Positions 3,726 through 51,498 of a DNA stretch of 64,000 nucleotides are shown piece by piece (position 1 is the stretch's first letter; every line of letters begins with the position of its first letter). Source of the DNA: Alphaproteobacteria bacterium (GTDB lineage Bacteria; Pseudomonadota; Alphaproteobacteria; RF32; CAG-239). The stretch is from the NCBI GenBank assembly GCA_015062435.1, contig SUUR01000002.1:187-64186 (forward strand), given 5' to 3'. The notes beneath the pieces were generated by a model. The model saw nothing but the letters and a program-made list of their open reading frames with translations. It did no database searches and had not been told where the DNA came from. The position numbers and the translations under genes were made by a program.

Positions 3726-4261
3726 GAATAATCGGCGGAAAATATCGAGGCAAAAAACTTTTTTCTCCTTTATCGGAAAATGTACGCCCGACTTCTGATC
3801 GTAGCCGAGAAGCGATATTTAATATTTTACGATCAAAATTCGGAAATAATTTTTCCCATCTCAAACTCTTAGATATTTTTTGCGGAACCGGAGCATTTTC
3901 ATTGGAAGCCATATCTCAAGGATTTGCCGGCGCTACTTCCATTGATATGGATATATCATCAATCCAAAAAAATGCCAAACTTTTTCCCCAAGAACAAAAC
4001 CGCCTGACTATAATAAAATCAAACGTCAAAACATTTCCTTCCTTAAAAGATAAGTATGATATTTTATTTATGGACGCACCATATAATCAAGACCTAAACA
4101 CAACAACTTTGTTATCTGCATCCGGATACCTGAATACAGGTGCTTTATGTATAATAGAAACCCATAAAAATGAAAAATTTCAACTTCCTACAAATTTTAA
4201 GCTTATCGAAGAACGTATTTACGGAATATCCAAAATAACATTTGCTAGTTTTTCCGATTGA
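3722..4261 (+). CDS. rsmD: 16S rRNA (guanine966-N2)-methyltransferase
   Basis: MRIIGGKYRGKKL...RPTSDRSREAIFNIL, SAM motif DIFCGTGAFSLEA and DAPY. ATGA overlap with the upstream gene. Confidence 0.85.
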   Translation: MRIIGGKYRGKKLFSPLSENVRPTSDRSREAIFNILRSKFGNNFSHLKLLDIFCGTGAFSLEAISQGFAGATSIDMDISSIQKNAKLFPQEQNRLTIIKSNVKTFPSLKDKYDILFMDAPYNQDLNTTTLLSASGYLNTGALCIIETHKNEKFQLPTNFKLIEERIYGISKITFASFSD

Positions 4262-18447: not shown

Positions 18448-18530
18448 AATACGTTATACTATTGATTCCGATTCTACAAGCAAAAAGTACAGTACTAACA
18501 CCCTCCCCCTTCTTCGTCATTTTTTATTAT

Positions 18531-18650
18531 CATACTCCGGCTCCCCTTCTCTGTCATACTCCGGCTCTCCTTCTCTGTCATACTCCGGCTCTCCTTCTTT
18601 GTCATACTCCGCCTCTCCTTCTCTGTCATACTTCGCCTCCCCTTCTCTGT
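18531..18650. repeat. Tandem array, 5 x 24 bp (catactccggctcyccttctytgt)
   Basis: Units at 18531, 18555, 18579, 18603 and 18627. Each starts with the 5' arm of the hairpin that terminates the array. Confidence 0.9.
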
Positions 18651-18720
18651 CATACTCCGGCTTGACCGGAGTATCTTCCCTTTAGTTTCCTGAGATTATC
18701 CGAACAAGTCGGATAATGAT
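18649..18720 (+). repeat. Double-hairpin dispersed element, copy A (about 72 bp)
   Basis: gtcatactccgg-cttga-ccggagtatc, 19-nt linker, attatccga-acaag-tcggataat. Homologous copies at 23253-23326 and 23746-23819 (reverse orientation) and 36779-36850. Confidence 0.85.
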
Positions 18721-18754
18721 AGATAATGATTTTGTCACCTCAAGCCTCCCTTTT

Positions 18755-18824
18755 TGTCATTCCGAGCCTCTCTTTTGTCATTCCGAGCCTCTCTTTTGTC
18801 ATTCCGAGCTTGTCGAGGAATCCC
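18755..18824. repeat. Tandem 21-bp units (tgtcattccgagcctctcttt x2) ending in tgtcattccgagcttgtcgaggaatc
   Basis: Direct reading of 18755-18775, 18776-18796 and 18797-18824. Confidence 0.8.
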
Positions 18825-19137
18825 AATAGATGTTTCGACTTCGCTCAACATGACAATTAGCGATATTTTCACCCCCACCTTAATCCTCTCCCATCTAAGG
18901 GAAGAAAATATAAAGCACATTCCTCTTAATTTTAAGAAGAAGTAAAAATCCCCCTCCTCACTTCCGAGTCGGACAACTTGCACCACAGAGCCAATTAGAC
19001 AAAATCGATTCGCATAAAGATTCACAAAACAAAGACATAGATTCACCCGACTCCTTTCATTTGTTTTATTTCGGCTATTTTCGCAACTGATTTTCCCTAC
19101 AAAATCACTAAAAAACAAACCATAAACCCATTTTTTG

Positions 19138-19165
19138 TTGCCAAAAATCACAAACGTGCTATAAT
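19138..19165 (+). promoter_or_regulatory. Near-consensus sigma70 promoter in the non-coding zone
   Basis: TTGCCA (19138-19143), 16 nt, TGcTATAAT (-10 at 19160-19165). Confidence 0.45.
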
Positions 19166-19258: not shown

Positions 19259-19567
19259 GAAGATAGACTGATTAATTTTATTTTGATATGAGGCCCTTAT
19301 CATAACGTTGATAAGGTAAAGGTAAAAAAAACTAGTAAAAATATAAATTCCCCAAAGATGATTAGAAATAATCACATTTATTCACTGTTTTACAATTAAC
19401 ATTTTAGCAATTTCTCAAGTCATGGAGATAGGAACAGACCAGGTCTGGTGCCGATGATTGCGATGTTTTTTGTGTTCGGTGTCTAAATGATTTTTATGAT
19501 TCTGCGGGGGCTAAAGAGGGAATGGAATGTGATACTAGCACAAACCTATTACCTCAAAAAAATTGAC

Positions 19568-22198
19568 ATGAGACAGATGATGAACATCCTCATGACTTTG
19601 GCTACTTTGGTGGTAGCACTCCTCTCACAATCATGTGAGAAAATGTCAACCGGAACTGCAGAAATGCAGAATAAGGTTGACATGACTGTAAAAAAAGTCA
19701 CAATCCGTGACACTATTACAGTCACCGAGATAGTGATCCAGAAGGACACTATCATTCTACCAGGAGACACCATTATCTCAGTGGTAGAAAAAGAAGTTAT
19801 TAAGTACATCACTGTACACGATACAGTGACTGTAGAGAATAACTTCACCGGTCACCGAACTGGATCCCCATTGGTAACCGGCAAGAGGGTTGCTACCCTG
19901 CCTGAATTCACGTTTGTGGATGGTAAATTGGTAGAAACCAACTACCTGACTGCGAATTTTAAATTCGAAGTCAAAGCTAGCAACCCGATAGAGGTACCAA
20001 GTGAGCCAACACTTGTTTCTACCTCTGCAACTATCAGTGGCAAAAACTTCTCCTACAAATATTATGCCGGAGAAAATGTCAATGACAGTTGGAAAGTTAC
20101 ATCGGACAACCGAGTTGCTTTCCAAACTCAGAATGGTATACAATATTACACCATTCCTGAGTACACTCCAGTTTCATTGGCTTTTTACAACGCCAGTGAC
20201 AAAAAATGGGAACATTTGGCAGCTGCCACCATCAACAATATTATTCAGGACAGCGACATCCAAGAGCTTTACATTAAAGCAAAGGACGAGCCGAAACCTG
20301 AATACAAGCTCATCATTAACCACAAGAGCGCAAAGGTGAACGCATCTGCTATGCAGATTGTCGATACTCACAACGCATATCTTGTTGATAACGACAAAGT
20401 TGTTGAGACTGATACATACGATGCACTGCATCAGGTATCATTCACTCAATCTGCACAGGTTGAGTACAACGTGGCAAAAGAAATGGAACAAGCGTCTTTC
20501 ACCATTACCAACGGTATGGTGAAAGTGAATAACATAATTTTCAAAGTCAGTGTTAAAACCGCTGACTGTGATGCTGTTACAATGGATACCAACAATACCA
20601 CATATTGCCATCCGGCATTCCCTGTGGACGGTGCCGTAAAAGCTCTAAATTGTTGTTCACTTGAGGGCAAAACCCTCAAGACTAAAACCATCACCGACAA
20701 CGAGTTGCCTGGTGAAATAATAATTGGTGATAATGACGAAGATACTGTCACAATCCCTATCGTTATCGAGGTTGTTCCTCCTACCACCCCTGCAGACGTC
20801 CACGATGTGGAGTTTGCAGAAGAAGCTCTAGTCACTTCCCCCAACTTTTTAACCTTAATCGCATATCCAACAATTAACGGTGTGCGTACAGGGGAAGAAG
20901 TTGAATTAAAGGACTCATTCTCAGGATCATTGACAGCAGGTGCGCAGATTAACAAGACCTCTAAAGGTTCTGTTACTCTAAATAGCACAACTGCTATGAT
21001 TTCTGATAATAATGCCATTTTCACTTACATTATAGAAAGTGAAACAACTGATGGCATTTGGAAATGGTCCATTAAAAATGAGGGGACATTCACCTATAAA
21101 AGGAATGGTGTGAACAAAACTGTTACCAGACCGATTAAGGCTGACGTTGCAGTTAAATCAACATCATTCACTGCTGACAATGGCACATACCGCAACACAG
21201 CATCTTTGTATGCTAACGGTTTCGCCATCGATGCAGATACACAGGTGATAAAAATTACCCCACCAACTGTAAGAAGGGACAGCACTTATTCTGCAGGCAC
21301 TCCTTACAGTGCGACCAAAGCTAAAGTCATTAGAACAGTATACGCTAACGGCCAATTTGAGTCTACTAAAGACATCTATGTTGACTATGTAGTTGATTTT
21401 GATTGTGGAGCAAAAGAGACAATCCCAAACATGTCTCAGCTCAATTATGGCTCAGCCATTAGTGCTAAGGTTGGTAGCAACCCGATTGCGTTGAACATAC
21501 ACAGATTCAACGCAATTGTAGATGTTCCTTCGAAACTCAATTTTGTAGATGACGGTAAGAGTCACACTGTTGACTTCACCTACTCTACACTTGTTATTGA
21601 AAGTAATGGTAACATTACCAAAACTGACAATAGTACTTCTGAGTATCAGATTATAAACAACAAGCTTTACTTCAAGCTTGTTTGTGACGGTTTCACCGTT
21701 GCTACTGATACAAAGGAGATTGTGCAGAAGAAGGAAATACCATCGATTAAGCCTCTAATCGATGGGTATACAGCCATTGAGGCATACATCACCAATTGTT
21801 TCCATACAGAGGGAACAACGCAAATAAGTGATGGTGCACACATGGCTATAGTCTTCAAGAAAAACATTGAAGGCTATAGTGGCAATGATAAATATATCAT
21901 TCGCCACGCAGACCCCGTAACTGCAAAACAGATAGGAAAGGATACTTATTTTTCATCAATTGATGAAACTCAAATAATATCCTTCATAACTGTCAACAAC
22001 ACTATGGAGCCTGCGTACTTAATTGATTATAAGAACGGAAATTGGCTATACCAATCTATTGCTAATTCAGCAATGGTGTACCCGATAGCCCTTCCTGAAA
22101 CCATCACTCAAAGATTTGATTTTACTGTAATCAAATCAAATAAACATGATGGTTATATAACAATTAAGTACAAAGAGATAACTCATAAATTAAATTAG
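19568..22198 (+). CDS. Large putative surface lipoprotein, unknown function (foreign-looking)
   Basis: 876 aa from ATG 19568 (MRQMMNILMTLATLVVALLSQSC). T/V/N/I-rich, probably beta-rich. No SD upstream. Visibly richer in G+C, with a different codon flavour from its neighbours. Confidence 0.7.
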   Translation: MRQMMNILMTLATLVVALLSQSCEKMSTGTAEMQNKVDMTVKKVTIRDTITVTEIVIQKDTIILPGDTIISVVEKEVIKYITVHDTVTVENNFTGHRTGSPLVTGKRVATLPEFTFVDGKLVETNYLTANFKFEVKASNPIEVPSEPTLVSTSATISGKNFSYKYYAGENVNDSWKVTSDNRVAFQTQNGIQYYTIPEYTPVSLAFYNASDKKWEHLAAATINNIIQDSDIQELYIKAKDEPKPEYKLIINHKSAKVNASAMQIVDTHNAYLVDNDKVVETDTYDALHQVSFTQSAQVEYNVAKEMEQASFTITNGMVKVNNIIFKVSVKTADCDAVTMDTNNTTYCHPAFPVDGAVKALNCCSLEGKTLKTKTITDNELPGEIIIGDNDEDTVTIPIVIEVVPPTTPADVHDVEFAEEALVTSPNFLTLIAYPTINGVRTGEEVELKDSFSGSLTAGAQINKTSKGSVTLNSTTAMISDNNAIFTYIIESETTDGIWKWSIKNEGTFTYKRNGVNKTVTRPIKADVAVKSTSFTADNGTYRNTASLYANGFAIDADTQVIKITPPTVRRDSTYSAGTPYSATKAKVIRTVYANGQFESTKDIYVDYVVDFDCGAKETIPNMSQLNYGSAISAKVGSNPIALNIHRFNAIVDVPSKLNFVDDGKSHTVDFTYSTLVIESNGNITKTDNSTSEYQIINNKLYFKLVCDGFTVATDTKEIVQKKEIPSIKPLIDGYTAIEAYITNCFHTEGTTQISDGAHMAIVFKKNIEGYSGNDKYIIRHADPVTAKQIGKDTYFSSIDETQIISFITVNNTMEPAYLIDYKNGNWLYQSIANSAMVYPIALPETITQRFDFTVIKSNKHDGYITIKYKEITHKLN

Positions 22199-22321: not shown

Positions 22322-23014
22322 ATGAAAAAACTTTTTACATTAATATTGTGCGTAGCTTTCGCTATCTCAGCTAGCGCACAAACCCGCCAATATATTGACG
22401 GTAGAGGGCACGTTTTCAATGGAAACGATTGTTTCCTAGTAACCCTCTACGGAGGCATCCACGCATACGGAAATATTTCCGACAATGCGCAATGCATTGG
22501 TGGAGCCGAGTTGGTGTACAACCACTACGGCTTCCGCGCATCAATTGGCGGAGCCTACGGGGCACAAAATACAAGCCATGGGCAACTAGGCTTGTATTGG
22601 AACTTCACTGGAAATGCTAACATCAAACACCGAGCTTACATCGGTGTCACTGGTGGTTTTATCCAGTATGGAGGAATAATCGACCAGGACTTGTTGCTTA
22701 ACGGCGCAAGTACCCACGTTGATCTCAGTGAAGTGCACAACATCAAGTTGACACTCCCTGAGAACTCCATTGCCCCAACTGTAGGAGCAAGAGTTGGTAT
22801 CGATTGGCGATTGGGAAGATCTATATATCTTACCACCGCAGTTGAAGGTAGCCGTAACTTTATTAATAAGAAGGTTACTTTCAATTCCGTTGAGGCTCAA
22901 TTGCCTTTAGAAGACGGAAACATCGATATCAAGCTGAAAACTACGGACGACCCGGTTCCGGTAAATCACTGGGGATTGAAAGCAATGATTGGTATCTCCA
23001 TAAGATTGAAATAA
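22322..23014 (+). CDS. Outer-membrane beta-barrel protein (foreign-looking)
   Basis: Signal peptide MKKLFTLILCVAFAISASA/Q, alternating Gly/aromatic beta-strand pattern, 230 aa, no SD upstream. Confidence 0.65.
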   Translation: MKKLFTLILCVAFAISASAQTRQYIDGRGHVFNGNDCFLVTLYGGIHAYGNISDNAQCIGGAELVYNHYGFRASIGGAYGAQNTSHGQLGLYWNFTGNANIKHRAYIGVTGGFIQYGGIIDQDLLLNGASTHVDLSEVHNIKLTLPENSIAPTVGARVGIDWRLGRSIYLTTAVEGSRNFINKKVTFNSVEAQLPLEDGNIDIKLKTTDDPVPVNHWGLKAMIGISIRLK

Positions 23015-23091: not shown

Positions 23092-23326
23092 TGTCATTAC
23101 CCGATACCACTAACTGCAATTACCCGATACCACTAACTGTCATTATCCGGCTCAACTAACTGCAATTACCCGATACCACTAACCGTCATTATCCGGCTCG
23201 ACTAACTGTCATTACCCTACTTCACTAACTGCAATTACCCGACACCATTAACTGTCATTATCCGGCTCGACCGGATAATCTCAAGAAACTTAGAATAGAT
23301 ACTCCGGTCAAGCCGGAGTATGACAC
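23092..23326. repeat. 7 x 23-bp tandem units plus double-hairpin element, copy B
   Basis: Units start at 23092, 23115, 23138, 23161, 23184, 23207 and 23230 (tgtcattayccg..../tgcaattacccga....ctaac). Full hairpins follow: attatccggctcgaccggataat and atactccggtcaagccggagtat. Confidence 0.9.
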
Positions 23327-23394
23327 AAAAACAAAGTATAACTCCCAAAAAATAACAGCATAAAATTATAATATTCAAAAACAAATTTATGTCA

Positions 23395-23682
23395 TTAACA
23401 AATACTACTATACAAATCATCCCAATTAGGATTCATTTTTTCTATTAAATCTATTTTCCAATTTCTATTATATTTTTTTAATTTTTTCTCCCTATATATT
23501 GCTTGTTCTTCACCATCAATAATCTCATAATACACTAACTTATCCAAATTATATTTAGCACTAAATCCTTGCAATATTTTATGTTTGTGTTCATAAATCC
23601 TACGACACAAATCATTAGTAACACCAATATATAATGTTCCATATCTTTTATTAGTAATAATATAAACGTACATTGTTTTCAT
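23395..23682 (-). CDS. GIY-YIG (URI-domain) nuclease, COG2827/UPF0213-like
   Basis: MKTMYVYIITNKRYGTLYIGVTNDLCRRIYEHK...VYYE...REKKLKKYNRNWK; 95 aa. The longer ORF start at 23727 reads into repeat DNA and was trimmed. Confidence 0.85.
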   Translation of the reverse strand: MKTMYVYIITNKRYGTLYIGVTNDLCRRIYEHKHKILQGFSAKYNLDKLVYYEIIDGEEQAIYREKKLKKYNRNWKIDLIEKMNPNWDDLYSSIC

Positions 23683-23699
23683 ATCTACTAACCCCAATC

Positions 23700-23823
23700 T
23701 GTCATTATCCGGCTCGACTAACTGCAATTACCCGACACCACTAACTGTCATTATCCGGCTCGACTGGATAATCTCAAGAAACTTAGAATAGATACTCCGG
23801 TCAAGCCGGAGTATGACACAAAA
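23700..23823. repeat. 2 x 23-bp units plus double-hairpin element, copy C
   Basis: 23723-23823 matches 23230-23330 at 99 of 101 positions (direct orientation). Confidence 0.9.
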
Positions 23824-23832
23824 TGTATGTAT

Positions 23833-35755: not shown

Positions 35756-36754
35756 TTAATTCTCCATACAATTAGTATGACTATTAAAAATATAATCAAC
35801 TAAACAACTTTTGGTAAGATTACCATTTTGATCTGTTTGGGTACAAACATGATATCCATCTTCACATTCCAAAACATAATATCTAGTATAACCACCACAC
35901 GTTACTTCTTCACAAATAGCACGCGAAGGACAATATACTTCAGCTCCTTCTTCCCATACACATTCCACACACTCATTACCGATAAGCTCCGAATGAATAT
36001 CACAAACTAACTTATATCGTGTTGGTAATCCGCAACCTGGCACACAATCATATACAGTTCCATGATCTCCTTCAATAGGTTTTTCTTCAAATGGATAATT
36101 TGAACAGTTATCAGGAAAACACTCACAATATCCTGAGCAATATCCGTTACGATATACCCCATCGCAATAAGATTCATCTTCACATTCGTTTGGAAAATAA
36201 TCACGCTCACAAAATTCTGAACACATATTTGAATCAGCAGAACAAGTATATCCTTCACAATATTGCCACTCTCCGCCACATTCATAATATCCGGCACAGG
36301 GATTATTATTTACACAAGTATTTCCACTCTGCGTATATCCGGAATTACAGCTATCAAGTTTATATTTAGTGACATTACCGCAAGTATAATTAGAACACGT
36401 TCCGTTAGCATCACAACTGCTTAAAGGATAATTTGTAAAATTACAGGCGTTGCAAGTTAAACCGTCGGAACTGAGTTCATAACTGTTTTGACAACCATCT
36501 AATTTGTATTGAGTTAATTCTAAGCAAACGCCACCATCAGGACATGTTTCTAAAGGATATTCACTAAATCCGGATTCCGGACAATAGAACAGAGTAGTAT
36601 CAAACGGACAGGCTATGGCTTTTTTCCCCTCACAATCGTTTGCGGATTTGATATATCCCATATCTGCACAAGACGGACGAACCATACAACTGTCTTGAGC
36701 CAAAGATGATGAAGATAAAAGTAGTATTGATACGCTTATAACATATTTGTTCAT
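35756..36754 (-). CDS. Secreted Cys-rich repeat protein (third member of the CA(E/D)MGY family)
   Basis: ATG 36754 with SD aggag. Signal peptide MNKYVISVSILLLSSSSLA/Q, SCADMGYIKSANDCEGKKAIACPFD, then repeated C..C...CG...YKLD.C..GY units with a very high Cys count. Confidence 0.75.
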   Translation of the reverse strand: MNKYVISVSILLLSSSSLAQDSCMVRPSCADMGYIKSANDCEGKKAIACPFDTTLFYCPESGFSEYPLETCPDGGVCLELTQYKLDGCQNSYELSSDGLTCNACNFTNYPLSSCDANGTCSNYTCGNVTKYKLDSCNSGYTQSGNTCVNNNPCAGYYECGGEWQYCEGYTCSADSNMCSEFCERDYFPNECEDESYCDGVYRNGYCSGYCECFPDNCSNYPFEEKPIEGDHGTVYDCVPGCGLPTRYKLVCDIHSELIGNECVECVWEEGAEVYCPSRAICEEVTCGGYTRYYVLECEDGYHVCTQTDQNGNLTKSCLVDYIFNSHTNCMEN

Positions 36755-36778
36755 CTCATGGCTCCTTTGTTTTTCTCT

Positions 36779-36873
36779 GTCATATTCCGACTTGATCGGA
36801 ATATCTCTCTTAAATTTCGTGAGATTGTCCGAACAAGTCGGACAATGACAGTTAGTGATGTCAGACAATGACA
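36779..36873 (+). repeat. Double-hairpin element copy D plus one 23-bp unit
   Basis: gtcatattccga-cttga-tcggaatatc, linker, attgtccga-acaag-tcggacaat, then gacagttagtgatgtcagacaatgaca. Sits 25 nt upstream of the Cys-rich gene start. Confidence 0.85.
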
Positions 36874-37034
36874 TTTACAGAGATGCTGTTTAAGATGTTT
36901 AACAAGTATAGAATTTGGATAAAATATAAGGATATATGCTTGTAAGGTCACAAAGCTTAAACAGCATCTGTAACTTCAAGTATATAAAATGTTTTATAGT
37001 ATGTCAATATATAGTTAAAAGTAGTGGACGAATT

Positions 37035-37089: not shown

Positions 37090-39270
37090 TTACTTTTTAC
37101 CATCTTTCATTGGTTTAGGTGTCTTATCCTTAGATGCATCAATAGCATCAGCCAATGGAGTTTCATAAGTTTTGAAACCTACCGGTTTACGAGTTCCAAA
37201 CTCTCTACCGCAAATTTCCAAACCCAAACTCTTTAACGCAGTTTCTACCGGTATAAACAAGTCCGGAGTTTCATCTGTTTTTTTGGTTTTATGAGCCATG
37301 CCCACAATATTTCCGTGATTATCAATTAATGCTCCACCGATAGTAACTGTTTGTACAAAAGTATCGACTATAATTTCGGCATCACCACTATCAGACCATC
37401 TATATCCGATAACTTTTCCTTCATTATCCAGATATCCCTCACCTTCACTATCCAAATCAAGTAATCCCAAAGTCATTAACATGTCTTTATTAACTTCCGG
37501 CAACTGCAAAGATAACGGAAGTGGAGTATAATTTGTTGGTGCATCTAACATTAACAGAGCCACATTTTTAGAAGGATTAACTCTCACGGCAACTGCCTTC
37601 ATATTTTTTCCGTTAATAGTTTGTATTTCAAAGTTATTATTATTTTTAATCATCAAATCAGCTGATGTCAGCACCAAATTATCAGCGATAATTAAACCGG
37701 AACCTTTAACTCCTTCAGCATTTTTAACTGCCACAACAGATGCTCTGACTTTATATAAGTTTTGTGGTTTCATATTTTCATATGGAGCCTGATTTTTAAT
37801 ACAAAAAGCATTATCAATACTGGCAAAAGAACTTTCCAACATTTCTTTACTGTCAATCAGCACTTTATCGTCAGTATCCAAAGGTACATCTACCCAATAA
37901 TCTTCAACTATTTTAACATTATCAGGCATATTTTCTGTTATATTGGTAACGATTGTTCTACTGTTTTCGTCTATTGCCACCATCGAACAATTGTCATTAA
38001 TTGATATAATCGCACCTGCACCGGCGATTCCGGAATTTTCCTCAATTTCAATCATTCTGCCGACAGGTTTTAAAGATTTTTCCAAAACATTAACAACACC
38101 GACTTCTGCCACCGGTTCCAAAGATGCCTCAGCCACATTCATAACGTCAACATCACCTATCGGCTCCAATGTCGTTTCAACAACATCAACATTCTCAACC
38201 TCTCCTACCGGCTCCAATGTTGTTTCTATAACATCAACCATTTCAACATCTGCAACCGGAACTCCGGCTACACCAGCGATTGTTTTCACCTCTGTTTGTG
38301 TTGGTATTTCAACTTTATCTGCCACACAACGTTGCAATTCTTCCACACCGGTCAACACATCATTATACTGTCCGGCAAAGGTTTTATTTTTCACCTCTTT
38401 ACCCAATAAATTAGCTTTTTGACGAATCAATTCTTCAGGCAATACACGTTGAGATACTGTATAATTAAAACAGCTTATTTCCGGTAATTTTGTTAAAGCA
38501 TCTTCAAAAGCTCTTTCCACTAACAAAGTCTCGCCTTTAGGTTCTCCTTCAGAAATCTGTCCATATCCGGTTGTCATTCCCTTACAATATACTTGTGTTT
38601 TATCCAAGCTCATCACTCGCCATACCACAGACATTTCTGATGATCCGCTACGTAATTTTTTCTGTTTAACATCACCCCAGTCAAATTCATCACATATATT
38701 CATAAAGTAATCTGTAATTTCTGCTGTAACAATATATTCAGGAGTATCTATTTTATCAGAATCCAAATAATAAGGATTAGATTTATCCACCACTACCGGA
38801 TAATAGTCATTCATTGTTTCAAAAAATACATCAAAGAACTTCATATCCTTTTGCATGGCTCGTCCTTCATTCAAAAATACATTTTTGCTTTCTCGACGAC
38901 ACCCGAAAATACGAAATTTATAATTACCTAATTTAGTATTATAATTTTCATAATCACCATTCTTACGGATTCTGAAATCTACATGCTCTAACTTTAGCGG
39001 AGCATAATTATTTCTGCTTTTATGCAAAGCCAAATATGCATCTTGATGCTCTTCATCAACAATTAAAGTTTGGTATTTATAGCCGGTATCTTCTATATAA
39101 GAAAAACGCTTAACCGGTTTTTTATTCATTGGCTCGCACATACAGTCAAACATACCCAGTGTAGATTCGCTTCCATCACACATACAAGGAATCAACTCCG
39201 GACTTTCTTTACTGCATGCTCCGACAAAAGCCAACACAGCCAACAGACTAACGCCCCAAACTTTTTTCAT
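37090..39270 (-). CDS. Lipoprotein with C-terminal degenerate trypsin-like (S1C-like) domain
   Basis: Lipobox FVGAC. The C-terminal region aligns by eye to DegP-type blocks, but with GSGLIIADNLVLTSADLM (His to Asp), NVALLML (Asp to Asn) and TIGGALID (Ser to Ile). Confidence 0.65.
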   Translation of the reverse strand: MKKVWGVSLLAVLAFVGACSKESPELIPCMCDGSESTLGMFDCMCEPMNKKPVKRFSYIEDTGYKYQTLIVDEEHQDAYLALHKSRNNYAPLKLEHVDFRIRKNGDYENYNTKLGNYKFRIFGCRRESKNVFLNEGRAMQKDMKFFDVFFETMNDYYPVVVDKSNPYYLDSDKIDTPEYIVTAEITDYFMNICDEFDWGDVKQKKLRSGSSEMSVVWRVMSLDKTQVYCKGMTTGYGQISEGEPKGETLLVERAFEDALTKLPEISCFNYTVSQRVLPEELIRQKANLLGKEVKNKTFAGQYNDVLTGVEELQRCVADKVEIPTQTEVKTIAGVAGVPVADVEMVDVIETTLEPVGEVENVDVVETTLEPIGDVDVMNVAEASLEPVAEVGVVNVLEKSLKPVGRMIEIEENSGIAGAGAIISINDNCSMVAIDENSRTIVTNITENMPDNVKIVEDYWVDVPLDTDDKVLIDSKEMLESSFASIDNAFCIKNQAPYENMKPQNLYKVRASVVAVKNAEGVKGSGLIIADNLVLTSADLMIKNNNNFEIQTINGKNMKAVAVRVNPSKNVALLMLDAPTNYTPLPLSLQLPEVNKDMLMTLGLLDLDSEGEGYLDNEGKVIGYRWSDSGDAEIIVDTFVQTVTIGGALIDNHGNIVGMAHKTKKTDETPDLFIPVETALKSLGLEICGREFGTRKPVGFKTYETPLADAIDASKDKTPKPMKDGKK
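38056..38247 (-). repeat. 4 x 48-nt in-frame tandem repeat (16-aa units VExVDVxETTLEPxGx)
   Basis: Residues 342-405 of the lipoprotein: VEMVDVIETTLEPVGE / VENVDVVETTLEPIGD / VDVMNVAEASLEPVAE / VGVVNVLEKSLKPVGR. Confidence 0.8.
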
Positions 39271-48513: not shown

Positions 48514-51498
48514 TTACCAAACTTCATCATAACCTAGCGTAGGATCATTCAGACGAAGATTGTAATCATCATTATTCTTATCAAATCCCCATCTGAAATT
48601 TATTAATTGGTCATAACCTTTGTATGATTGACCACCATCAACAATCTGATGATTCCATTCCCACTTTGGAGCCGTAGACATCGCACGTCTTTCAAAATAA
48701 CAATAAACATTTGCAATAGCCGTCATTTCTTCATTATACACCGGAAACAGATTCCAAACCACTTTACCTTGTAAATCACCAAAAGATGCACCTATTTTAG
48801 TTAAATATTCTTCATAATCAGAAGCATAATATAAGAATCCCATAATTGCATGCCAACCGATGAATGCTGATTGACGTTGTCCGCCATCAGCTCCTGACCC
48901 TGAGGCTGTTGATGGAGTTCCTTTATTTCCATAAACACCACTGATGGTTGTATTTAGCCATGTATTTGTTTGGAATGTTAATGGCCAACCGCTTTTTACT
49001 ACGTGACTGTGACTTCCGTTTCCGTTAGAACTGTTAAGTTCAAAAGCCGCATTCAAAGGATTCGTTCTTGGCACAAAATAATCCCTGAATTTTTTACCGA
49101 TATCTCCTGCAGAAGGTTCCACACCCGGAATAAAGAATGCTTCAGACATTTTCCATCTGATAGGACTGATGGTAATTACCTTCGAATATCCGGGAGGACA
49201 TTGTGGTGTAGGCACAAATCCCAACCACGGAGACGCTATACAGTTTGCATCATTATTAGCACATTCACCAGGTCCATCTACCGTAAATCCTCCTCCGACT
49301 AATGCTGTAACCGGATATTCCTCCCATTTCTTTTTATTATCTTCTTCTTTATATGTATTATCCAATACATAAATACCTTTATTAATAAAATCCGGAAGAA
49401 TATCACTTAACCTTGCTCCACCTCTTGTAGTCAGCTTAATATCATGCATTACTGAAGTATACGCCGGATTCACCTGATATGCATCATAAGCTTTGGTAGC
49501 TCCGGTATCATAATCTCCTTTTCCGACATAATCTGGAAATTCAACATTTGAAATAAATCTGTCTGCACGAATATACCCCGGAGTATCAACCCTTCCTTCA
49601 GAAGTATCACCGGTGTTAAGAGTTCCCCTTGCCACATCAATAATTCCTTCTCTTGATATTCTCACCCCTGTATCACGAACAGAATTATCAGACGGAAACG
49701 CCGGAGCTAAATCGTACACAATATCATCATCATTCATAATAAAATTATCATTAAATTGGAAAGTGCTACTATTAACATATGTTGTATCTGCAGTTATGGT
49801 AACATCTCCATTTTCCAATTCCATCTGTGGAGTATTCACACCAGTTCCCTGACCTCCGATAATTGCAGCATAATTACCGCTCATTACGGAACCGCTTGCA
49901 TCAATTGCTAATTTATTATCACCGGCAGCCGTATTTACTTCAAATGCCGTACCTATGTCCATACTCATTGCCCCCGTTGAAGCGGAAACCGTATTTCCGC
50001 TTATTGCAACTTCACCGGCACTATCAATTGCCACCCCCGAAGAATCCGTTTTTAATTTATTGGAAACAGCCCCGTTTATTTGCTGATAACTCAAACCACT
50101 ATCATCAATTAATAATTTATTTGTTTCACTTGAACCACCGATTATTTCAACTGCTCTATTATTACCGGTCTTAGATACTTTTAAGATATCACTAACCGAA
50201 AAACTCGGTAAATTAACTTTAACATCATCAGCCGTTGCTACAAAGTTATAAGTACCATCTTCTTGTTTTCCACCACCAAGTTCAATATTCCCATATAGCT
50301 TATCAGCTATCAAATCTTGATCTATTTTAACGTTTCCGGTAAAATGTGCATTTGCATTATTCTTAACCAATAAATTCCCATCAACCGCTAACGAATATTC
50401 TTCATTTTCATCATCTGTCTCACCACTTGTACCGGAAACTAAAATTCCTTCACCTGCTATTAACTTACCGGTAGTATCAACCGTCACTTTTTCATTAATT
50501 TTAGTTGCACCTGTTATTGTTGTCGCACCTGTTATTGTTGTCGCTCCGGTTATTGTTGTTGCTCCGGTAATACTTGTCGGCACATTGATGTCAACCTTAG
50601 ATGAATCTACTGTCATCTTTTCTGCAATATTTGCACTTCCGGCTTTTAATAATCCTGTAATTGTGCCTGTACCAGCCGTCAAAGCACTGGTAATATTTGC
50701 ATTTTCTGCTGATATATCCTTCGTAACATCTAAACCGCCTTCTATCGTAACCTTATCAATTCCACTGGCAGCCACAATCTTATCAACGTCTTCAATAGAG
50801 TTTTCTGCCATATACAATGTTGTTTGCATTGTATTATACTCAATACCTTCTGAGTTATCTCTGAACAACACATGATCTTTATTGGCACCACCGCCACCTG
50901 ATGATGTAACCGCATGTACCGATGCCGTCACCAAACTTCCGGTATTTACAGTATCACCAAAACCAAAATCAGATAAATTAGCCTTCCAACCGCCTTGAAC
51001 ACCCATGATATTAAAATCTGCACGTTCTTTATCAACCACACCACCGTTGGCACCAACCATGGATGCTATTTTTGCAGCTCTGATCATTGGTAATTCAGCA
51101 TCAACCGGAGCCAACACCATTCCGGTAATGGCGGAGTGTTCATTATCTTCACCTTCATTAATTAATTCATTTCTTAGAGCAAACTCATATTTTCCGAATA
51201 TTTTAGATTTATCGATATTAAAATTATATGGCAAATACGGAACAATATCATCGCTGTCAATAGAAGCCTCACCTACCGGTCCGGAAGCAATTTCATCATA
51301 GTTATCATATATATAATCATCTAATGCTTTTGAGAGTGTACGCATTTGAGTTGCAGCATTGATATCTTGCAATTCGGTTGTTCTTTCCGCTGCTTTTTTA
51401 TACAATACCGGAGTAACCATAGTAATCAACCCGAGCATTGCCAATGCTTCTACCATCATACTGCCTTTTTGCAAACATTTTTCCGTTTTGGTTTTCAT
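48514..51498 (-). CDS. Giant (994 aa) protein with prepilin/TadE-TadG-like N-terminus, beta-helix-like repeats and a Cys/Trp-rich C-terminal domain
   Basis: N-terminus MKTKTEKCLQKG/SMMVEALAMLGLITMVTPVLY: a short basic leader, Gly, Glu at +5, then about 20 hydrophobic residues. Gly/Thr/Asn-rich repeats in the middle, including (TITGAT)x4. Confidence 0.6.
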   Translation of the reverse strand: MKTKTEKCLQKGSMMVEALAMLGLITMVTPVLYKKAAERTTELQDINAATQMRTLSKALDDYIYDNYDEIASGPVGEASIDSDDIVPYLPYNFNIDKSKIFGKYEFALRNELINEGEDNEHSAITGMVLAPVDAELPMIRAAKIASMVGANGGVVDKERADFNIMGVQGGWKANLSDFGFGDTVNTGSLVTASVHAVTSSGGGGANKDHVLFRDNSEGIEYNTMQTTLYMAENSIEDVDKIVAASGIDKVTIEGGLDVTKDISAENANITSALTAGTGTITGLLKAGSANIAEKMTVDSSKVDINVPTSITGATTITGATTITGATTITGATKINEKVTVDTTGKLIAGEGILVSGTSGETDDENEEYSLAVDGNLLVKNNANAHFTGNVKIDQDLIADKLYGNIELGGGKQEDGTYNFVATADDVKVNLPSFSVSDILKVSKTGNNRAVEIIGGSSETNKLLIDDSGLSYQQINGAVSNKLKTDSSGVAIDSAGEVAISGNTVSASTGAMSMDIGTAFEVNTAAGDNKLAIDASGSVMSGNYAAIIGGQGTGVNTPQMELENGDVTITADTTYVNSSTFQFNDNFIMNDDDIVYDLAPAFPSDNSVRDTGVRISREGIIDVARGTLNTGDTSEGRVDTPGYIRADRFISNVEFPDYVGKGDYDTGATKAYDAYQVNPAYTSVMHDIKLTTRGGARLSDILPDFINKGIYVLDNTYKEEDNKKKWEEYPVTALVGGGFTVDGPGECANNDANCIASPWLGFVPTPQCPPGYSKVITISPIRWKMSEAFFIPGVEPSAGDIGKKFRDYFVPRTNPLNAAFELNSSNGNGSHSHVVKSGWPLTFQTNTWLNTTISGVYGNKGTPSTASGSGADGGQRQSAFIGWHAIMGFLYYASDYEEYLTKIGASFGDLQGKVVWNLFPVYNEEMTAIANVYCYFERRAMSTAPKWEWNHQIVDGGQSYKGYDQLINFRWGFDKNNDDYNLRLNDPTLGYDEVW
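50503..50577 (-). repeat. In-frame repeat of about 3.5 x 21 nt (GATTITG units)
   Basis: Residues 308-332: TSITGATTITGATTITGATTITGAT. Confidence 0.75.

Follow-up and report, generated by a model that had tools for sequence, protein, structure and literature searches.

A GIY-YIG nuclease gene of the Ssn family between direct copies of its probable hairpin targets in an uncultured alphaproteobacterium

Contig SUUR01000002.1 of an uncultured member of the Alphaproteobacteria (assembly GCA_015062435.1) carries, within the stretch of 64,000 nucleotides analyzed here (positions 187 to 64,186 of the contig, hereafter the window), a small gene for a GIY-YIG nuclease that is enclosed by two direct copies of a hairpin-bearing repeat. 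A preliminary description of this locus had proposed a functional partnership between the nuclease and the hairpins with their GTCAT tags, and this proposal is upheld by the homology of the protein to SsnA, by the match of the hairpins to the SRM motif, by the enrichment of such hairpins beside homologous genes at 80 loci, and by the work of Chenal et al. (2025). The locus is very probably an Ssn/SRM module, i.e., a nuclease of the Ssn family together with its cognate flanking hairpins, SRM being repetitive extragenic palindromes (REPs) that carry a CGTC or TGTC tag. A partnership of this kind has already been published, and the locus represents a further example with new hairpin sequences.

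The name Ssn was given by Chenal and colleagues to single-domain GIY-YIG proteins of ∼94 aa (CDD cd10448), which are site-specific endonucleases acting on single-stranded DNA (ssDNA) only (Chenal et al., 2025; PMC11893778). Their targets are hairpins preceded by a GTCAT tag, known as NTS in Neisseria and more generally as SRM, and cleavage takes place a few nucleotides 5' of the tag; the four members of the family that were tested biochemically bind the hairpin in ssDNA and cut just upstream of it (PMC11893778). At least one SRM was found near 71% of the Ssn homologs, and SRM on both sides of 42%, and the NTS-ssnA-NTS layout was likened to an insertion sequence, the nearest analogy being REP/RAYT (PMC11893778). 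In Neisseria, the activity of SsnA reduces the integration of transforming DNA that carries the repeat, while the role of the family in other bacteria was left open (PMC11893778). The view taken in the preliminary description, that the function of small stand-alone GIY-YIG proteins is not settled, is outdated.

An Ssn-family gene enclosed by direct copies of a hairpin dimer

The gene, referred to here as ssn, occupies positions 23395-23682 on the minus strand and encodes a 95-aa protein with a single GIY-YIG domain (Pfam PF01541, E 4.8e-14, residues 4-77) and no further significant domain. Based on sequence homology to SsnA, this protein belongs to the Ssn family. The comparator was the 94-aa SsnA ortholog encoded on the Neisseria gonorrhoeae chromosome NZ_CP119140.1 (locus L089), not the N. 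meningitidis protein itself; complete 2.17-Mb chromosomes of N. gonorrhoeae are listed as plasmids in PLSDB. BLASTP aligned the two proteins at 51% identity over 90 aa (E 3e-35) and tblastn of the gonococcal protein recovered the gene in the window with E 1.8e-29, well within the E < 1e-10 to SsnA that serves as the homology criterion of the published family. Residues Y7, Y18, and E65 of the window protein align with Y6, Y17, and E64 of SsnA and are invariant among 32 homologs; the gonococcal open reading frame (ORF) has Y6, Y17, and E64 and carries NTS repeats on its flanks. No NCBIfam model matches the window protein, no Ssn structure was found by a sequence search of the PDB, and no homolog of the protein was found in phages. 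A second GIY-YIG gene, or a remnant of one, was sought in the 64-kb window and not found.

The true start of ssn is most likely the ATG at 23682, because homologs begin with MK(T)MYVYI. The public annotation (the 110-aa ORF P0001) places the start at a TTG at 23727 and translates 15 codons of repeat DNA, so that the stretch 23683-23727 (minus strand), which crosses first-half repeat units, is probably a spurious 5' extension; that the 5' end of the annotated ORF lies inside repeat DNA had been seen correctly in the preliminary description. By first-half unit we mean a short pyrimidine-rich 5' flank followed by the GTCAT tag, the 5' arm, and all or part of the loop of a hairpin, with the 3' arm absent.

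The left copy of the direct repeat (23230-23330) lies downstream of ssn and the right copy (23723-23823) upstream of it, directly after the stop codon of a gene for an AI-2E transporter. The two copies are identical at 99 of 101 positions, the two base differences being exactly those named before, and weaker homology widens the repeated block to 134 nt at 92% identity (23206-23339 versus 23699-23832). Each copy indeed holds one 23-bp unit and a head-to-head dimer of two hairpins, but the nuclease gene is not, as had been stated, the sole content between them: a 3' flank of 64 bp (23331-23394, minus strand), AT-rich (20% GC) and of unique sequence, and one extra first-half hairpin unit (23694-23716) are also found there. 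In the orientation of ssn, the locus starts with the transporter stop codon, followed by hairpin B (sense), hairpin A (antisense), first-half units, and ssn, and continues with the AT-rich flank, again B (sense), A (antisense), and first-half units, up to the terminator of a convergent gene encoding 230 aa. A promoter-like site (TTGAGA-16-GATAAT, 23750-23777, minus strand), which matches at 10 of 12 positions and is a consensus match only, lies inside the upstream dimer and faces ssn, and the same site, likewise a consensus match only, is present in the downstream copy at 23257-23284.

The 101-bp duplication is genuine and no artefact of assembly, because each of the contigs L002-L005, which come from four different metagenome samples, runs through both copies at 99.98-100% identity. 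Several short contigs (L001, L006-L008) do end inside the repeat, yet the four assemblies cross both copies identically and two fixed positions tell the copies apart, which leaves the artefact explanation with practically no credibility. An artefact of this kind had been named in the preliminary description as a possible refutation of the partnership.

The two hairpins of each copy consist of a 9-bp stem and a 5-nt loop with an unpaired TGTCAT tag ahead of each, and are placed on opposite strands with a 19-nt spacer between them and their tags facing outward. Hairpin A reads GTCATTATCCGGCTCGACCGGATAAT on the plus strand, and hairpin B reads GTCATACTCCGGCTTGACCGGAGTAT on the minus strand. The left copy contains hairpin A at 23254-23279 (plus strand, tag GTCAT at 23254-23258, stem-loop at 23257-23279) and hairpin B at 23295-23325 (minus strand, tag at 23320-23324, stem-loop at 23299-23321), while in the right copy hairpin A (23747-23772, plus strand) has one stem mismatch, a C to T change at 23765, and hairpin B lies at 23788-23818 (minus strand). 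When folded as ssDNA, both hairpins are far more stable than their shuffled counterparts (−8.2 kcal/mol and z −5.3 for A, −9.0 kcal/mol and z −7.2 for B, left copy), and the hairpin motifs are above chance, with no match in 100 shuffles. The published SRM pattern (a regular expression) has three exact matches in the window, where 0.05 are expected; each is a copy of hairpin B, and the two at this locus are situated 70 bp downstream and 106 bp upstream of ssn. With its probable target on either side, the gene shows the arrangement typical of the family, SRM-ssn-SRM.

The same hairpins fall within the class of CGTC-tagged REPs, which are characterized by a CGTC tag (often TGTC), an 8-9-bp stem beginning with AT, a 4-5-nt loop, and a short tail (Di Nocera et al., 2013; PMC3733652): hairpins A and B have the TGTC tag, a 9-bp stem starting with AT, and a 5-nt loop. 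Members of this class, among them dRS3 (NIME) of Neisseria and RPE-4 and RPE-6 of Rickettsia, mostly form head-to-head dimers and are commonest in Alphaproteobacteria (PMC3733652). All four hairpin dimers of the window are head-to-head with outward tags, and amount to seven tagged hairpins with a 9-bp stem plus one with a degenerate tag, distributed over three loci in the 64 kb. Head-to-head dimers likewise account for 61 of 115 related hairpins from metagenomes, among the matches listed.

By homology with the four tested enzymes, the window protein would bind hairpin A and/or B once the tagged strand is single-stranded, as might happen during replication, repair, transformation, or conjugation, and the cut would be expected to fall a few nucleotides 5' of the GTCAT tag, whereas double-stranded DNA and RNA would be left alone. 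We infer a biological role in which the protein processes or restricts ssDNA bearing the repeat.

Association of the nuclease gene with hairpins across genomes

A profile of 32 homologs was scanned over one genome per species and gave 80 loci from many phyla, whose Ssn proteins are 50-67% identical to the window protein. At these loci, SRM occur at a density of 2.15 per kb in the first 150 bp from the gene, which falls to 0.63 per kb between 150 and 300 bp and to 0.03-0.04 per kb at distances above 2 kb; near the gene (<150 bp versus >2 kb), they are enriched ∼60-fold. The co-localization of such genes with tagged hairpins in other phyla, which the preliminary description had mentioned without figures, is shown by these densities. 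With a looser definition of the hairpin (tag plus perfect stem), hairpins are present within 450 bp of the gene in 65 of 84 loci. Upstream of the gene 63 tags are sense and 18 antisense, downstream 17 are sense and 55 antisense, so that tags point outward from the gene. Long direct repeats that bracket the gene recur elsewhere, with lengths of 144 bp in a Xanthobacteraceae metagenome-assembled genome, 107 bp in Omnitrophus, and 85 bp in a locus from Tepidisphaeraceae; a full dimer on either side of the gene, as in the window, makes up several such repeats, and the direct dimer-ssn-dimer layout is found in Tepidisphaeraceae, Bradyrhizobium, and Omnitrophus. The identity of the hairpin arms also tracks the identity of the proteins (Spearman 0.29, a value reached by none of 999 permutations).

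These data bear on the possibility that gene and repeats are merely coincidental neighbors, the hairpins being ordinary REP-type terminators or mRNA stabilizers that build up between genes, and the GIY-YIG protein an unrelated repair, homing, or restriction enzyme. In agreement with such a coincidence, every element of the window is intergenic, one of them directly follows the stop codon of a gene, GIY-YIG domains are known in homing and restriction enzymes, and the protein has a weak match to TIGR01453 (E 0.0074, 16 bits), far below the curated cut-off of 56 bits. However, the enrichment of SRM beside homologs is not explained in this way, and the 95-aa protein has no DNA-binding or other added domain. 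Neither a terminator-like T-run after the hairpins nor a phage match was detected, and a scan of the region 18-25 kb with Rfam revealed no family, group I introns included. Since members of the family are moreover known to cleave only hairpin-bearing ssDNA (PMC11893778), we consider a coincidence very improbable. A GIY-YIG homing endonuclease was considered separately as an identity for the protein and is ruled out by the lack of an extra domain, of an intron, and of a phage match, and by the TIGR01453 score of 16 versus 56 bits.

Some observations nevertheless weigh against reading the locus as an Ssn/SRM module. The correlation between proteins and hairpins is confounded by phylogeny and base composition, and hairpin A departs from the strict SRM pattern at one position (A instead of Y). 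A search in the reverse direction, in which a degenerate hairpin pattern was run over metagenomes and matched hairpins from many habitats, found an Ssn homolog encoded in 3 of 120 loci picked by the hairpin alone, among the matches listed. Finally, the role described in Neisseria, where the enzyme limits transformation, may not necessarily be valid in an uncultured alphaproteobacterium of gut type. Most copies of the repeat are therefore remote from the nuclease gene, as would be expected of a dispersed repeat that depends on one gene or a few, and adjacency characterizes the gene rather than the repeat.

First-half arrays and the origin of the duplication

Tandem arrays of first-half units adjoin hairpin A on its tag side. 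The longer one comprises ∼7 units of 23 bp (23092-23253, plus strand; 23092-23264 with period 23 and 7.5 copies according to Tandem Repeats Finder) and ends in the complete hairpin A of the left copy, and the shorter one, with ∼2 units (23694-23746, plus strand; 23704-23765, period 23, 2.7 copies), lies between the start of ssn and the right hairpin A. The same polarity is seen more widely, as a further first-half copy occurs within 90 nt on the tag side of 26 of 161 hairpins near ssn and on the other side of 7 of 161. Arrays with units of 21-25 bp are also present at the loci L022, L061, L086, L211, and L218. Half-unit copies (GCGGGAATGACG, GCGGGAATGATGG) follow the upstream hairpin of the Neisseria gene in L089 as well. 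No mention of first-half arrays is made in the paper on Ssn (PMC11893778) or in that on CGTC-tagged REPs (PMC3733652).

A set of related loci (L217-L220) gives an impression of how such arrays evolve. L217-L219 and L220 have the same Ssn protein and near-identical flanks, but their arrays are unequal by a single unit on each side of the gene (25 bp downstream, 24 bp upstream), and one complete tagged hairpin (∼30 bp) is inverted without a change of place, so that a head-to-head dimer becomes a head-to-tail pair; the variable sites lie at about 3750-3800 and about 4420-4640 in L218. Because strains with the same Ssn protein differ by single units, the arrays change fast and with a precision of one unit. 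Ssn still cuts when the two halves of a hairpin are provided on separate strands (PMC11893778), so first-half units could be substrates of the enzyme whenever a sole 3' arm pairs with them. The changes in the arrays may be driven by Ssn or by plain slippage.

An empty site, which the preliminary description had suggested looking for in relatives, exists in the closest relative as judged by the AI-2E transporter (88% identical). The gene order there is ack-pta-ndk-348aa-AI-2E-[114 bp]-236aa, and the 114-bp gap contains one antisense A-type hairpin and the shared terminator, but no ssn; the convergent 236-aa gene product is 50% identical to the 230-aa protein of the window. Two further relatives, in which the gene order is not kept beyond the transporter, have no ssn at that place either. 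The Ssn proteins that are 69-71% identical to that of the window are encoded in other contexts, always with flanking hairpin dimers and first-half arrays; their genes have a response regulator as neighbor or lie within clusters of pilin paralogs (Bundlin/PilS). The latter setting is that of L214-L220 from related gut-type Alphaproteobacteria, where ssn and its hairpins are located within clusters of paralogous type IV pilins of the Bundlin/PilS type, and it is reminiscent of pathogenic Neisseria, in which NTS cluster around the genes of surface proteins.

The gene is also atypical in composition. With a GC content of 23.3% (17.7% at third codon positions), ssn of the window contrasts with 38-45% in the neighboring genes, and in 80 of 81 loci (L009-L088, L211, L215, and L218 among the loci considered) the AT content of ssn exceeds that of its surroundings, the mean difference being 10.7 GC points. 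For third codon positions, the deficit amounts to 7 points, with the lower value in ssn in 76% of the loci. The two dimers that flank ssn are 98.8% identical to each other, compared to 85% and 80.5% to the other dimers of the window, and being each other's closest relatives they arose in place or have been kept alike by gene conversion. We infer that the flanking copies originated in place, by duplication or gene conversion, as the ssn cassette arrived or later. Both boundaries of the duplicated block lie outside the outward-facing GTCAT tags, by 2 nt at its start and by 6 nt at its end, and the direct repeats of L086 and L020 end 1-3 nt outside the tags.

One way to account for these features, as an extension of the Ssn/SRM reading, is that a mobile ssn cassette, alone or together with one dimer, entered a resident hairpin site and that this insertion produced the 101-134-bp repeats. 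Two routes can be conceived: a 493-bp circle carrying one dimer could have been integrated by a single crossover, or two nicks made by Ssn at the outward tags could have led to a staggered break whose fill-in duplicated the dimer, in the manner of a very long target-site duplication. The empty site in the closest relative, the presence of 69-71% identical proteins in different but always hairpin-flanked contexts, the low GC content of ssn here and at nearly all other loci, and the mutual similarity of the flanking dimers are in favor of such an event, as is the position of the block boundaries 1-6 nt outside the tags, given that the family cuts a few nucleotides 5' of the tag. On the other hand, the same boundaries are predicted if the dimer is a plain repeat unit, and recombinational loss between direct repeats could also yield an empty site, although a full dimer should then remain. 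The low GC content results in part from a protein rich in Lys, Asn, Tyr, and Ile, the deficit at third codon positions being smaller. No excised circle, second identical copy, or transposition event was seen, and strain variation at the locus, sought among the 7-8 public contigs, was absent, these contigs representing one strain. Empty site, differing contexts, and atypical composition are thus compatible with mobility of the module, without proving it, and we regard the insertion of a mobile cassette as rather unlikely.

Alternatively, the duplication could reflect local rearrangement only, i.e., unequal crossing-over, slippage, or gene conversion of neighboring dimers that were already present, with no involvement of the nuclease. 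The repeats lie in minisatellite-like arrays, and at the related locus described above the arrays beside ssn vary by one 24-25-bp unit, as slippage would give. Such events leave unexplained, however, why the dimer-ssn-dimer arrangement recurs in unrelated phyla and why it is specifically ssn that is flanked; we retain local rearrangement as a tentative possibility.

A further-reaching proposal is that Ssn is the missing propagating enzyme of the CGTC-tagged REPs, beyond being a restriction-like nuclease. The head-to-head dimers would then be non-autonomous derivatives of the ssn unit, whose tags likewise point outward. If Ssn nicked a resident dimer at both of its outward tags, a staggered break would open, and fill-in after the insertion of DNA would duplicate the dimer, which would account for direct dimer-ssn-dimer repeats bounded 1-6 nt outside the tags; the polarized, strain-variable arrays and the in-place inversions of single units could be scars of repeated cutting and repair. 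We consider it unlikely that Ssn propagates these repeats.

Further elements of the window and comparison with known systems

Two other loci of the window contain the same hairpins with no nuclease gene. The first is a cluster at 18530-18830, in which two first-half arrays surround a hairpin dimer and a third, weaker hairpin is present. It begins with an array of 24-bp units (18530-18662, 5.5 copies), followed by a hairpin B that matches SRM exactly (18648-18678, plus strand), an A-like hairpin with a degenerate tag (18695-18717), and an array of 21-bp units (18743-18809, 3.1 copies) that ends in the weaker hairpin. The second is a solitary, intergenic head-to-head dimer at 36779-36849 (tags at 36779, plus strand, and 36849, minus strand). 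Two ORFs extend into these elements and their annotated ends are probably wrong, namely a 138-aa ORF (18735-19151, minus strand, no Pfam hit) that ends inside the 21-bp array and a 372-aa ORF (35756-36874, minus strand) that starts inside the dimer at 36.8 kb. Neither the 903-aa ORF (19487-22198) nor the 230-aa ORF (22322-23014) beside the module matches Pfam. The 230-aa protein and its counterpart in the closest relative share only 50% identity, versus 88% for the adjacent transporter, and both ORFs appear to evolve fast. Other tandem repeats at 776-1023, 38147-38259, and 50507-50579 (periods of 72, 48, and 18 bp) are unrelated to the hairpins and probably coding.

The closest known system is Ssn/NTS, represented by SsnA of N. 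meningitidis (PMC11893778). Both systems have a single-domain GIY-YIG protein of ∼94 aa (51% identity, with the catalytic Tyr, Tyr, and Glu kept), GTCAT hairpins on both sides of the gene, of which hairpin B fits SRM, and repeats dispersed without the gene. The stems of the window, ATACTCCGG and ATTATCCGG, differ from TTCCCGCG of NTS, and a different specificity is therefore expected. The window further differs in its tight heterodimers with a 19-nt spacer, in its long tandem arrays of first-half units, and in its host, an uncultured alphaproteobacterium of low GC content.

With the CGTC-tagged REPs (PMC3733652), the window hairpins share the TGTC tag, the 9-bp stem starting with AT, the 5-nt loop, the short tail, and the dimers with outward tags, but their tail is CTC or CTA instead of the consensus CCA, and first-half arrays are absent from that description. 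Di Nocera et al. (2013) concluded that these repeats "lack a dedicated transposase" (PMC3733652); whereas no dedicated enzyme was thus recognized at that time, the work on Ssn and the present locus supply a partner. In the environmental contigs L099, L107, L112, L124, L126, L176, L183, and L204, hairpin dimers are found inside a larger palindrome (GTCTGTCCATAAA ... TTTATGGACAGAC), similar to the target palindromes of the CGTC-1 dimers of Halothiobacillus (Di Nocera et al., 2013; PMC3733652).

The layout also resembles that of REP/REPIN-RAYT systems, in which one or a few nuclease genes are flanked by tagged hairpins recognized as ssDNA while many non-autonomous hairpin dimers are located elsewhere, largely in intergenic positions. 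RAYTs are thought to spread REPINs. They are, however, HUH tyrosine transposases (IS200/IS605-type Y1) associated with a GTAG tag, in contrast to the hydrolytic GIY-YIG nuclease and the GTC tag of the window, and we know of no strand-transfer activity in Ssn. With this enzyme and this tag, the locus does not belong to the REPIN/RAYT systems, and the likeness is one of layout only. UPF0213/YhbQ-type proteins (BH0048, PDB 1zg2; also COG2827) are similar in size and share the GIY-YIG core, but the similarity of 1zg2 to the window protein is marginal (E 0.054), and to our knowledge no tie of these proteins to hairpin repeats has been reported.

The partnership that had been deduced from the raw sequence alone is the one already described in 2025 for the Ssn family, and for this reason the main claim is not new. 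What goes beyond the literature consulted are the polarized and strain-variable first-half arrays and the clean empty site with its AT-rich cassette. Ssn-type enzymes are under development as site-specific cutters of ssDNA, and a compact pair of Ssn protein and hairpins with new stem sequences represents a potential new specificity. The empty site, the AT-rich cassette, and the unit-precise polymorphisms of the arrays make the question of whether Ssn spreads its own repeats more directly testable.

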